Below are positions 9,175-12,895 of a stretch of DNA of 32,000 nt, piece by piece (positions within the stretch are counted from its first letter, which is position 1; the number at the start of each line of letters is the position of its first letter). Made by a program: the position numbers and the translations under genes. This stretch comes from Methanobacteriaceae archaeon (lineage in GTDB: Archaea > Methanobacteriota > Methanobacteria > Methanobacteriales > Methanobacteriaceae). A model generated the notes under the pieces. The model was not told where the DNA came from and did no database searches. It saw nothing but the letters and a program-made list of their open reading frames with translations. Location of the stretch: the NCBI GenBank assembly GCA_030016715.1, contig JASEJD010000012.1:12917-44916 (forward strand). Reading direction: 5' to 3'.

Positions 9175-9546
9175 TTAGTTACTTTTTCTATAATTATTAG
9201 TTTTAGGAGAATAATAACCATCTAATTGCGCTAAATTCTCATATAATTCAGTTATATGATTATAATCATCATATTCTTCGCTTATTACTGTTATGTGGGC
9301 AGGAGGATGTATTTTTTTAATTTGCATGATGGTTTTTGTAGTTTCTGCTTTAACATTTATAATAGCAGAAATTCTAGATTCTGTTCTTAATTTTTGTTTT
9401 AAAATTTTTTCTGCAATTTTATCAGCTTTTTCGGATGAAATTAATTTAGGTTTTCCTATCAATTTCAAATTAGCATACCTCTCAACATCAGAAATAGAAT
9501 TTAAGAGCTTTGATTTATTCAAAGCTCTTATAAGAATTAATGACAT
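9175..9546 (-). CDS. hypothetical soluble protein, third gene of the envelope trio
   Basis: 123 aa with no TM segment. A GAGGT SD overlaps the TAG stop of the upstream gene 6 nt before the ATG, with a 10-nt intergenic gap. I recognise no family. Confidence 0.6.
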   Translation of the reverse strand: MSLILIRALNKSKLLNSISDVERYANLKLIGKPKLISSEKADKIAEKILKQKLRTESRISAIINVKAETTKTIMQIKKIHPPAHITVISEEYDDYNHITELYENLAQLDGYYSPKTNNYRKSN

Positions 9547-9556
9547 TTTTAAACCT

Positions 9557-10801
9557 CTATTTCAAGAATGAAGTAATTAAAGTGCTTCTAAATAATACTA
9601 GAAGAACTAAAACAAATCCTATTGCAGTTTGCATATTTCCGACTATGTCTATTATGTTCGAACTTATAGGTAGATTCCATGGTGGAGATGTTCTTCCATC
9701 CGGTAGTGGGTCAAAATAAACACCAACAGCACGGGAACTCTCTTTTACATTGATATCTTTAGGTTCAACATAATTCACACCAACTAAAAGACCATTATCT
9801 ATACCTCGATTAATATCTTTGGCTATCTCATTTACATTGTAACCATCTTTTTTAACCGATGCTTTTACAATTTCCGTGGTGGTTTGAACTACTCCAGATT
9901 CATCAGTTCCATAAACAGAAACCAAAACACTTTCTGGAGTTACTGTGATGGCATCACCCAAAGCTTCATATGCATAAACTGTTTTTAGTGGAGTTCCATC
10001 TATGGGACAAGTCATGTAATTATCTGCTGAAGGAAAACCAATACCCCATCCATCTTCAGGACAAACCTTACGATATTCTTGGTTCATTGGAAATCCTGTC
10101 TCATTAACCTTCTGAGGAGTAAACATATCTCCCGTACTTACACTGGAAACCAAGTTAACTGCACCACCACCATATTTTTCACCAGCTTCTATGGATACCT
10201 TACCAAATACTTCACTCATAATTTCAGTGGCTGGATATCCATCCCGGATCATTTTTCCGATCATTATGGCAGTTTCTCGACGAACCCGTGTTGCAGTACC
10301 ATATTGCGGATTTCCATGGGTGTTTCTAAGATGTATTATAGCCCCTTTAGTACCTGGGGGTAAAACAGCTAGCCCACCTGAACGTGGAGTTACAGTTATA
10401 ACTCCATCGTTTGATACTTCAACTACATAAACATCGAATGATCCACCTACTGCAGCTCCTCCAGTAGGAGATCCAGTCATTATACGAATTCCTGGAAAAG
10501 AACTTGCAGCGCTTGCTGCTTCAGGGATTGTTGAACCAGATTCTAACCTTCTTAAAGTCTCAACGATAGCCTTAAGACGTGGAGTGGTATTTCCTTCCCC
10601 CCCAGATAGAACTGCGAAATGGTTTTCTTTGGACTCTAAAAAAGTTACTGAAAACATGTTTGGTGCAAAAGACATGCTACCTGCTGCAGCACCATTAGGA
10701 TCCTTTCCAGTTGGATCGGTAATGATTACACAATTCATTGTCGCAGCAGATGTGTTCATAAACATTATAAGGGTGACTATTAATACTAAAATCTTCTTCA
10801 A
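9557..10801 (-). CDS. hypothetical exported protein with signal peptide and C-terminal TM anchor
   Basis: 414 aa with a TTG start embedded in TATTGAAG, a 4-nt overlap with the upstream stop. A GGGGGGAGG SD lies just upstream. Signal-like N-terminus (M)KKILVLIVTLIMFMNTSAA. The ectodomain is rich in Gly/Ala/Thr/Pro. C-terminal helix AIGFVLVLLVLFRSTLITSFLK. I recognise no family. Confidence 0.7.
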   Translation of the reverse strand: MKKILVLIVTLIMFMNTSAATMNCVIITDPTGKDPNGAAAGSMSFAPNMFSVTFLESKENHFAVLSGGEGNTTPRLKAIVETLRRLESGSTIPEAASAASSFPGIRIMTGSPTGGAAVGGSFDVYVVEVSNDGVITVTPRSGGLAVLPPGTKGAIIHLRNTHGNPQYGTATRVRRETAIMIGKMIRDGYPATEIMSEVFGKVSIEAGEKYGGGAVNLVSSVSTGDMFTPQKVNETGFPMNQEYRKVCPEDGWGIGFPSADNYMTCPIDGTPLKTVYAYEALGDAITVTPESVLVSVYGTDESGVVQTTTEIVKASVKKDGYNVNEIAKDINRGIDNGLLVGVNYVEPKDINVKESSRAVGVYFDPLPDGRTSPPWNLPISSNIIDIVGNMQTAIGFVLVLLVLFRSTLITSFLK

Positions 10802-11232
10802 TAGCCTCCCCCCTTAATATCGGCTGTAGCGAAATCCTCAATAACATTAATGGTTACTATGCCTGTTTTAGTATCAACTTTAACATCGGCTGCGGCAATT
10901 GGAGCTATACGGGTACCTGATATGGTTGTTCGCATTGCAAATTGTTCTGCAGTTGCAATAGCTTCATTTAATGGCAAACTACGTTTGGAGGTCACCAATG
11001 TATCGCCATCAATATAACTTCCAGGTCTGAATCCAGCTGCCGCCACATTGGCCCTGATAGAATCTGTAGGAACTACATCATTACCTTTAATTATAACTCC
11101 TGCAATAGGAATACCTTCTGGTGTTTCAGTAGATGACGCATAAGCTATATAAGTCATGAGTCTACCGGAAACAATTAACATAAATGCTAATATAAGAATA
11201 ATTAGCGTATCTCTTCTTACTTTAATGAACAT
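10798..11232 (-). CDS. hypothetical bitopic membrane protein (N-terminal anchor, about 110-aa external domain)
   Basis: 144 aa. ATG with GGTG 6 nt upstream. TM helix at about residues 9-31 (TLIILILAFMLIVSGRLMTYIAYA). It is translationally coupled to the next gene. Confidence 0.65.
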   Translation of the reverse strand: MFIKVRRDTLIILILAFMLIVSGRLMTYIAYASSTETPEGIPIAGVIIKGNDVVPTDSIRANVAAAGFRPGSYIDGDTLVTSKRSLPLNEAIATAEQFAMRTTISGTRIAPIAAADVKVDTKTGIVTINVIEDFATADIKGGGY

Positions 11233-11344
11233 TTTTTACACCGTTTTAATGTAAATTTATCTTAACACCTATAAAAACTTAATTTCATGTATAAATAAAC
11301 TATATGTGGTAATGAGCATCTAAATAGTAATATATTATTAAATG

Positions 11345-12895
11345 TTAATTTTGGTCCAAGTAGGATTTTATATGATCTTTAGATTTAAATGCAGCTTCAC
11401 CAAGACATACCACAACATCAGCATCAGTTTCAAATGATTTTTTCAATCCTTCTAATACTTGTTCAGGTGTAGCTCCTAAAAGCCCTTTTCTAAATTCTGT
11501 GGGAATATGGTCTGTGAATATAATCTTAGAACTTGAATCATACTCCAAAGCAACTTTTCTACTGTGAAAAGAAGCAGGGATTACATATTCAACTAGATTA
11601 ATAGCTCTTTCTAAAATCTCGAAATCTCCACTAATTCCTGATTCTGAAGCAATGGTGATTACTGCCGCAATTTTTTTATCATTATATATCTTTTTTAATT
11701 CATTTAGTACTGTCTGAACCCCGTAAGGATTATGGCCATAATCAATAATTATATCTTTTCCCTGGAAATTCTGAATATATTCTAAACGTCCAGGCACTCC
11801 TTCAAATGATTTTACTGCATCTACTATATCATCATCTGAAATTTTAAAAAATTCCATAGCAGCAATTATAGAACCAACTGCATTGTATACATTGTGCAAA
11901 CCCAATATATTTAACTGGATATTAAGAGTTTTTTCAGGAGTTTGTAGGTTGAAACTTTTTTCATCAATATTAGTTGCTATATACATAGGTTTAGGTCTTT
12001 TAAGGCCGCATTCACATTCGTAGTAGCCAACTCCTGCGATCGTTTCGTTTAATAAAATATTGCGACCACACCAACATTTTTTAAGGTTTTCTTGAGTATG
12101 TTCATAGTCAACACCAAAAGTTATTAATTGACCATGATAATTAAAAGATTCAACCATACCCCATAGTGTGGGATCATCAGAATTGATTATTAACTGTTTG
12201 CCTTGGAGGTGTTTAATTAATTCACCTTTAACTCGAGCATAATCTAAAAATTCTCGAACACCATCTAAGTGATCTGGGGTTATATTGGTAATAATACCAG
12301 ATAATGGTTGACATCGATCAATAATGAACTGTAAATCACCTTCATTACCCATAATACCCGTTTCAAGAACAGCCACATCACCCCTTAGACGGGCTTGTAA
12401 GGGAGGTATATACTCAGCATTTCCCTGTAAATTCTTAAAACCGTGTTCTACTGGTTTTAAACCTGCATATCTACATATATGTTTTAATAAGGTAACTGTA
12501 GTGGTTTTTCCATTGGTTCCAGTAACAAAAAAAACAGGTTTTTGTGGTTGAAACATTTCTAAGATGTCTTCCACACTGATAATTTTTGTTTTATGATAAT
12601 TTTTAGAATTTTCTATATTTTTTTGAATATCTCTAAATAGTTTAGATGATTTTGATAAACTTATAGGCGGTATTAAATAATCCAAGGAATCAAAGAAAGT
12701 TTTAGGATGATCTTTAAAGTATAATTCAACATCATAGTCATTTAAAGTGTAAATATAATCACAGTCTTTTCGGGATTTTATGTCGGTTCCTTTTACTTTA
12801 TAACCATTATCCATTATGACACGAGCTGCTAGGTTACCTGTGGCACCACATATCCCTATAATACCAAACCATTCATTCATTTTTGGCACATCCAT
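11345..12895 (-). CDS. Mur-ligase-family protein (MurC/MurT-like), putative pseudomurein peptide ligase
   Basis: 516 aa. MurC/D-like Rossmann N-terminus FGIIGICGATGNLAARVIMDNGYKVKGTD, P-loop FFVTGTNGKTTT, central-domain ITNITPDHLD and C-terminal DYGHNPYG. Carries an inserted CWCG...CECG cluster. The alternative start at ATG 12880 (MNEWFG...) has the better SD (GGATGTG + 6 nt). Confidence 0.85.
   Translation of the reverse strand: MDVPKMNEWFGIIGICGATGNLAARVIMDNGYKVKGTDIKSRKDCDYIYTLNDYDVELYFKDHPKTFFDSLDYLIPPISLSKSSKLFRDIQKNIENSKNYHKTKIISVEDILEMFQPQKPVFFVTGTNGKTTTVTLLKHICRYAGLKPVEHGFKNLQGNAEYIPPLQARLRGDVAVLETGIMGNEGDLQFIIDRCQPLSGIITNITPDHLDGVREFLDYARVKGELIKHLQGKQLIINSDDPTLWGMVESFNYHGQLITFGVDYEHTQENLKKCWCGRNILLNETIAGVGYYECECGLKRPKPMYIATNIDEKSFNLQTPEKTLNIQLNILGLHNVYNAVGSIIAAMEFFKISDDDIVDAVKSFEGVPGRLEYIQNFQGKDIIIDYGHNPYGVQTVLNELKKIYNDKKIAAVITIASESGISGDFEILERAINLVEYVIPASFHSRKVALEYDSSSKIIFTDHIPTEFRKGLLGATPEQVLEGLKKSFETDADVVVCLGEAAFKSKDHIKSYLDQN

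Follow-up and report, generated by a model that had tools for sequence, protein, structure and literature searches.

Subedi et al. 2021 (PMC10117817) reported two 'highly conserved transmembrane' genes that always lie downstream of pMurE and have no homology to any annotated protein, and these are the closest described counterparts of the gene treated here. They correspond to the families Mfer763 and Mfer764, the former of which that study names 'Con Pro' within its Gene Cluster 2. Lupo et al. 2025 (PMC11915815) assigned Mfer763 to cluster A as OG0001162, with a Sec signal peptide, no membrane segment, and no domain, and described Mfer764 as OG0001472, with one membrane segment. According to the latter authors, no pseudomurein polymerase is known, the cross-linking enzyme has only been guessed, and the extracytoplasmic steps are unknown. 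Neither of these two studies mentions a POTRA or an FtsQ-like fold for Mfer763, and a literature search (pseudomurein/POTRA, FtsQ/Methanobacteriales, and pseudomurein/AlphaFold) found no report of a POTRA-like reading. Mfer763 and Mfer764 are the two genes of the core cluster without an assigned domain. The present analysis deals with an Mfer763-family gene of a Methanobacteriaceae archaeon, located in a stretch of 32,000 nucleotides (assembly GCA_030016715.1, contig JASEJD010000012.1, positions 12,917 to 44,916), referred to below as the window. POTRA domains are known for docking and chaperone functions in the envelope machines of bacteria and organelles.

An earlier note, made from the sequence alone, had described the product of this gene as a bitopic protein of 144 amino acids with a POTRA/FtsQ-like sequence pattern, encoded next to Mur-type ligases. 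The open reading frame is present, on the minus strand, which the note did not give, and the peptide stretches quoted there agree letter for letter. Judged by its profile match, the protein is a full member of the Mfer763 family (NCBIfam NF053641; score 236.2 bits, cut-off 170 bits, match over positions 1-136 of a 137-position model). With Pfam at its default threshold, nothing was matched in this protein.

A predicted POTRA-like ectodomain

The ectodomain of Mfer763 very probably adopts a POTRA-like fold, as predicted from structure models. AlphaFold2 modelled the full-length protein with a predicted local distance difference test (pLDDT) score of 81 and residues 36-144 with a pLDDT of 90.4 and a predicted template modelling (pTM) score of 0.83. 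The domain model consists of a strand (45-49), a first helix (56-65), a second helix (88-100), and two closing strands (112-119 and 125-132); between both helices lies an additional hairpin sheet (72-75, 78-80, and 85-87). As modelled, the order of these elements is that of POTRA domains (strand-helix-helix-strand-strand) with a hairpin inserted between the helices, which is compatible with the fold order against which the earlier note had proposed to check a predicted structure. The inserted hairpin is nearly invariant in the family (G67, R69, G71, S72, G76, L79, T81, and R84; mean column identity 0.78 for residues 67-87). Concerning the motifs from which the POTRA pattern had been read, the opening one (h-h-x-G-N-x-x-h-x-x-x-x-I) fits I47-I59 exactly, whereas the closing one (G-h-h-h-x-V-x-E) is off by one residue, the protein having G-I-V-T-I-N-V-I-E (G124-E132).

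Structural comparisons point in the same direction. A Foldseek search of the domain model against the PDB returned POTRA domains for about 45 of the 50 best matches, and both the full-length and the domain model gave almost only POTRA domains. The top match was the tandem POTRA structure of Escherichia coli YaeT (BamA) (2v9h; probability 0.99, template modelling (TM) score 0.49), followed by FtsQ in the FtsQ-FtsB complex (6h9o_A; probability 0.98, root-mean-square deviation (rmsd) 3.3); further matches comprised many BamA entries, TamA, CdiB, Toc75, and cyanobacterial Omp85. Similarly, all ESM Atlas feature neighbours that carry a name belong to POTRA families (score 0.84, to be taken as a lead only), and the structural neighbours of the model of a family member include an FtsQ/DivIB cluster (TM 0.61) and POTRA_1 proteins. 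One cluster of the Mfer763 family, at rank 2, bears the Atlas label 'putative preprotein translocase subunit SecD', which is supported by nothing else.

At the sequence level, the POTRA relationship of Mfer763 appears marginal. The family profile matched the POTRA1-4 structure of Haemophilus influenzae BamA among the PDB sequences (E 6.6e-5). When the membrane helix was left out, all six matches at E<=10 were BamA proteins, all of them on POTRA2 (best E 6.4e-5), and the alignment with Acinetobacter baumannii BamA covered the entire Mfer763 domain. Profile-profile comparison with hhalign made use of references built from Pseudomonadota genomes sampled across the phylum (21 BamA-type and 13 FtsQ-type domains) and of 150 column shuffles as a null. 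The family scored 20.7 against the BamA-type POTRA (P 0.0024, probability 12%), a value reached by none of the 150 shuffles (mean 10.4, standard deviation 2.0), and 12.2 against the FtsQ-type POTRA_1, a value reached by 24 of them; the positive control, FtsQ type against BamA type, scored 30.6 (E 6e-6, probability 85%). These scores indicate that the Mfer763 domain is farther from both canonical POTRA families than these are from each other, and what little sequence signal it has favours Omp85/BamA-type over FtsQ-type POTRA domains.

A conserved N-terminal helix

The N-terminal hydrophobic helix of Mfer763 has a best 19-residue Kyte-Doolittle window of 2.24, with a net charge of +2 before and of -2 after it. 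Helix and charge pattern fit a predicted bitopic protein with its N-terminus inside and its C-terminus outside, so that the topology proposed in the earlier note is borne out as a prediction. Conservation suggests that this helix is a retained membrane anchor, in contrast to the literature, where a cleaved signal peptide is proposed. Mean column identity amounts to 0.85 in the N-terminal tail, 0.79 in the helix, and 0.78 in the domain core, whereas the same organisms show a value of 0.32 for the signal peptide of Mfer764. Residues R6, R7, D8, T9, L10, S22, G23, and Y28 are invariant, and the motif RR-(D/N)-x-L...G-R...Y-x-A-x-A is retained in a Methanopyrus-type homologue (P0130) that is only 42% identical. 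The helix is read as an anchor that is retained and engaged in interactions because a cleaved leader would not be expected to stay so constant. The invariant arginine pair also brought export by the Tat system into consideration, which was set aside as unlikely, as this genome, 92% complete, yielded no TatC.

Proposed pairing with Mfer764 and genomic context

The coordinates of the gene, its predicted domains, and its neighbours are listed in Table 1. The start codon (TTG) of the Mfer764-family gene and the stop codon (TGA) of the Mfer763 gene overlap by 4 nt (TTGA), with a G-rich Shine-Dalgarno run ahead of the former. Mfer764 starts with a signal peptide of variable sequence, continues with an ectodomain of about 360 residues, and has a conserved C-terminal membrane anchor. 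Both genes occur in this order and on the same strand in all 12 further genomes compared, with a pMur ligase upstream in 11 of these. Identity across the compared loci ranges from 70 to 77% for 763 and from 61 to 74% for 764, against 38-56% for pMurE and 54-57% for pMurC; by this measure, Mfer763 and Mfer764 are better conserved than the neighbouring Mur ligases in these loci. A stoichiometric 763-764 pair is suggested by the overlap, by an adjacency that never varies, by conservation at a similar level, and by the anchor of Mfer764, which is conserved just as strongly. We infer such a pairing from these features; the complex predictions did not bear it out (see below). In both complex models, ectodomain-only and full-length, a patch of 763 (D52-P55, the I-P-G-T loop at 104-111, and E132 onward) lies on 764 segments 48-60 and 76-87, all of which are conserved, and this patch is hypothesised to form the contact surface.

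Table 1. Position of the Mfer763-family gene, its predicted parts, and neighbouring features in the window
Feature	Position	Strand	Basis or remark
Mfer763-family gene (P0001)	10798..11232	-	144 aa open reading frame; start ATG at 11232-11230, stop TGA at 10800-10798
N-terminal hydrophobic helix, residues 7-33	11134..11214	-	AlphaFold2 helix; read as retained membrane anchor
POTRA-like domain (predicted), residues 43-133	10834..11106	-	AlphaFold2 model, Foldseek, PDB profile matches
Family-specific beta-hairpin insertion, residues 67-87	10972..11034	-	Between the two POTRA helices
Ribosome-binding motif GGTG of Mfer763	11242-11239	-	6 nt ahead of ATG
Shine-Dalgarno run GGGGGGAGG	10813-10805	-	GGAGG motif, ahead of Mfer764 start
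Mfer764-family gene, 414 aa	9557..10801	-	NF053642, 698 bits, above cut-off
pMurC, pseudomurein peptide ligase	11345..12895	-	NF053645, 723.7 bits; Mur_ligase_M + Mur_ligase_C
TATA-like AT-rich stretch TTTATTTATA	11290-11299	-	~58 nt upstream of Mfer763 start
DUF356 (PF04009) gene	9175-9546	-	After Mfer764

The proximity to Mur-type ligases in an archaeon, as put forward in the earlier note, is confirmed. Directly upstream of Mfer763, 112 nt away and on the same strand, lies pMurC, preceded by pMurD1, a TIGR03576 pyridoxal phosphate (PLP) enzyme, pMurE, an archaeal MraY-type transferase, and an ATP-grasp 'Ddl_archaea' protein, all of them exceeding their own NCBIfam cut-offs. The TATA-like stretch falls inside the spacer between pMurC and Mfer763 and may serve the 763-764 pair as an internal promoter. 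In the Methanopyrus-type record CP019436.1, which encodes P0130, the genes follow each other as Mur ligase, ATP-grasp, MraY-like, Mur ligase, 763, 764, and a 369-amino-acid protein, which is the order given for Methanopyrus sp. KOL6 by Lupo et al. 2025 (PMC11915815).

Some further observations concern the same genes. A look-up of RNA runs covering positions 9500-11400 gave none. The DUF356 gene likewise follows Mfer764 in at least five of the 12 other genomes, for which the available flanks were limited, and the 369-amino-acid protein occupies its place in the Methanopyrus-type record. In three genomes (loci L002, L004, and L005, about 1917-2740 each), the alignments of 763 and 764 leave some 430-800 nt between them, with longer frames of 165-182 amino acids; a C-terminal extension or a small inserted gene could account for this gap. 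No relative of Mfer764 was detected: the best PDB profile match had an E-value of 0.57, and no Atlas neighbour scored above 0.55. The C-terminal anchor motif of Mfer764 (G-N-x-Q-T-A-I-G ... L-F-R-S-T-L) is nearly invariant, with a column identity of 0.71 for the anchor, and C247 and C265 are conserved at 90% or more. Among 39 homologues, most have V, I, or M in place of C24, near the mature N-terminus, which speaks against an N-terminal cysteine nucleophile.

Distribution of the family

The family appears in nearly all genomes of the phylum. A survey found an Mfer763 match in 293 of 301 genomes, in 222 of the 223 high-quality ones, and in all 30 genera, nearly always as a single copy, and in none of 14 control genomes. 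A word-index search retrieved 344 homologues; all named ones are from Methanobacteriales-type archaea, at an identity of about 65-95%. A profile scan of 1.84 billion representative proteins gave 29 matches, all of them Mfer763-family members or fragments and none a bacterial protein. One homologue of 85% identity (P0003) is labelled 'Methanomicrobiales archaeon' and probably stems from a mislabelled or misbinned metagenome-assembled genome (MAG). In three entries (P0132, P0133, and P0127), the C-terminal half of the family is fused to an unrelated N-terminal sequence, with a methyltransferase-like start in the case of P0133; these are probably assembly or gene-calling chimeras.

Proposed role and alternative explanations

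In the preferred explanation, the short N-terminus of Mfer763, with its positive charge, lies in the cytoplasm and leads into a single, highly conserved membrane helix, which is followed outside the membrane by a POTRA-like domain of about 90 residues with the near-invariant hairpin. Mfer763 would remain anchored in the membrane as a docking subunit for Mfer764, the exported product of the overlapping next gene, which is anchored through its C-terminus. Together, 763 and 764 would form an outward-facing membrane complex that serves late pseudomurein assembly, for instance polymerisation, cross-linking, or insertion of the lipid-linked precursor. As a whole, this explanation stands about even between right and wrong; a role of Mfer763 in late pseudomurein assembly, taken by itself, is one that we infer with somewhat less than even confidence. 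If the fold is correct, it offers a first structural handle on the 763-764 pair and predicts a membrane-anchored complex with a defined contact surface. Wall-specific surface proteins that are restricted to archaea would be candidate targets against rumen and gut methanogens.

Several points weigh against this proposal. Firstly, every Foldseek E-value was 0.019 or higher and the query-normalised TM-scores were only 0.4-0.52; as no match reaches an E-value of 0.001, the evidence is consistent at the level of the fold but is no proof of homology. Secondly, the Pfam POTRA profile (PF07244) gave 14.8 bits (E 0.05), under its cut-off of 21.3, and any match at all in only seven of 68 family members. 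This score is at noise level, since the same profile gave 19.1 bits, its best score in this genome, to a protein-L-isoaspartate O-methyltransferase-like open reading frame (contig C27:2781-2909; L160 727-1386, minus strand), a match that is a false positive. The POTRA pattern of the earlier note is upheld at fold level by the order of elements in the model and by the Foldseek and Atlas neighbours, and marginally at the sequence level by the profile matches to BamA POTRA2. Thirdly, complex predictions stayed under the mark applied to them (ipSAE 0.32). The full-length 763+764 complex had a median ipSAE of 0.11, with controls at 0.00 and contacts mostly from helix to helix, and the ectodomain-only complex gave values of 0.42, 0.30, and 0.14 (median 0.30); neither prediction supports the pairing, and neither counts as evidence against it. 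Fourthly, ordinary POTRA scaffolds are poorly conserved in sequence, and the identity of about 70% across the phylum, above all in the inserted hairpin, hints at a job more specific than docking. Lastly, the conserved (A/S)-x-A motif at residues 30-32 suits a signal peptidase, and OG0001162 is predicted by Lupo et al. 2025 (PMC11915815) to carry a Sec signal peptide that can be cleaved and to have no membrane segment.

These last two features leave some probability to cleavage of the N-terminal helix. Mfer763 would then be a secreted soluble protein, its Sec signal peptide being cut after (A/S)-x-A near residue 32 and its POTRA-like domain being free between membrane and sacculus. Besides the SignalP-based prediction for OG0001162, the conservation of small residues at positions 30 and 32, with A32 invariant, speaks for this explanation. 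However, the hydrophobic core and the N-terminal tail are conserved to the same degree as a folded domain (0.79-0.85), far above the signal peptide of Mfer764, and the invariant residues from R6 to Y28, with a motif that survives in the 42%-identical homologue, would be hard to reconcile with a leader that is discarded. Secretion as a soluble protein is accordingly considered rather unlikely.

Alternatively, the POTRA resemblance may be convergent. The domain of Mfer763 would then be a module peculiar to this family that binds a ligand, such as the pseudomurein precursor, or acts as a catalyst, its active surface being formed by the invariant hairpin together with the GND and PGT loops. Conservation is indeed very high for a scaffold domain and includes the invariant polar residues N51, D52, R69, S72, T81, R84, T107, and E132; in addition, the sequence signal to the POTRA families is marginal and the 1.84 billion representative proteins contained no relatives beyond the family. 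Yet, six out of six PDB profile matches fall on one and the same BamA domain, POTRA domains make up about 45 of the 50 best structural matches, and a strand-helix-helix-strand-strand domain of 100 residues without a cofactor motif is unlikely to act as an enzyme by itself. Convergence is thus unlikely, and the membrane-anchored POTRA-like docking subunit is retained as the preferred reading.

Comparison with known systems

FtsQ/DivIB (POTRA_1, PF08478, plus FtsQ_DivIB_C, PF03799) shares with Mfer763 the predicted bitopic topology with the N-terminus inside, a POTRA-like domain right after the anchor and facing outward, and a gene position at the distal end of a mur/ddl-like cluster. The structural matches to 6h9o_A and to the FtsQ/DivIB cluster of the Atlas add to this likeness. 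The location behind murC-like and ddl-like genes recalls the order murC-ddlB-ftsQ of E. coli, a parallel that is to be read as a resemblance in gene order and not as evidence of orthology. The FtsQ_DivIB_C beta domain binds FtsB/FtsL. Mfer763 lacks this beta domain, as only about 10 residues follow the POTRA-like fold before the protein stops at residue 144. It is half the size of FtsQ (144 against 276 amino acids in E. coli), contrary to the 'same size class' of the earlier note.

In hhalign, Mfer763 gave no alignment with the FtsQ POTRA plus beta domain (P 0.26-0.44) and a probability of 1% against the single E. coli FtsQ, in line with the POTRA_1 score that shuffled columns reach as well. 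A fission of the FtsQ gene, with the POTRA domain in 763 and the beta domain in 764, was rejected at the sequence level, since Mfer764 does not resemble the C-terminal part of FtsQ either (P 0.66). Furthermore, ftsZ is located on another contig (C12) than the window (C14), which contains no division genes, so that a genomic link with ftsZ is not seen, and PSI-BLAST searches by Subedi et al. 2021 (PMC10117817) found no orthologues of FtsL, FtsI, FtsW, or FtsQ in these archaea; following that study, the archaea are not known to have FtsL and FtsB as partners. The equivalence with FtsQ/DivIB suggested in the earlier note is hence not supported, and it is very unlikely that Mfer763 is a shortened true FtsQ/DivIB orthologue, that is to say a divisome scaffold that came from a dcw-like cluster together with the mur genes and ties FtsZ/SepF-driven division to septal pseudomurein synthesis. 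Equally long odds apply to the broader idea that Mfer763 descends, in diverged form, from a bacterial POTRA protein of either the FtsQ or the Omp85 lineage and, with Mfer764, constitutes the outer machine polymerising or cross-linking pseudomurein, possibly at the division site. If this were true, murein and pseudomurein synthesis would share not only the ancestry of their cytoplasmic ligases and of MraY but also that of an assembly factor outside the membrane.

With the Omp85/BamA-type POTRA (PF07244, especially POTRA2 of BamA), Mfer763 shares the strand-helix-helix-strand-strand core and a first strand with I-x-I-x-G-N that is followed by the first helix. It differs from these proteins in being archaeal, in its predicted location in the cytoplasmic membrane, in its 21-residue invariant hairpin between the helices, and in its Pfam score below the cut-off. 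Omp85/TpsB proteins are defined by POTRA repeats and a 16-stranded beta-barrel, whereas Mfer763, with 144 amino acids, has a single domain on an N-terminal membrane helix and no barrel. The closest fit is the Mfer763 family itself, with which the protein of the window agrees in its full-length match, in the place of its gene between a pMur ligase and the Mfer764 gene, and in the restriction to pseudomurein-containing methanogens. As published, this family had no known domain; the predicted POTRA-like fold and the argument for a retained anchor are the additions made here.

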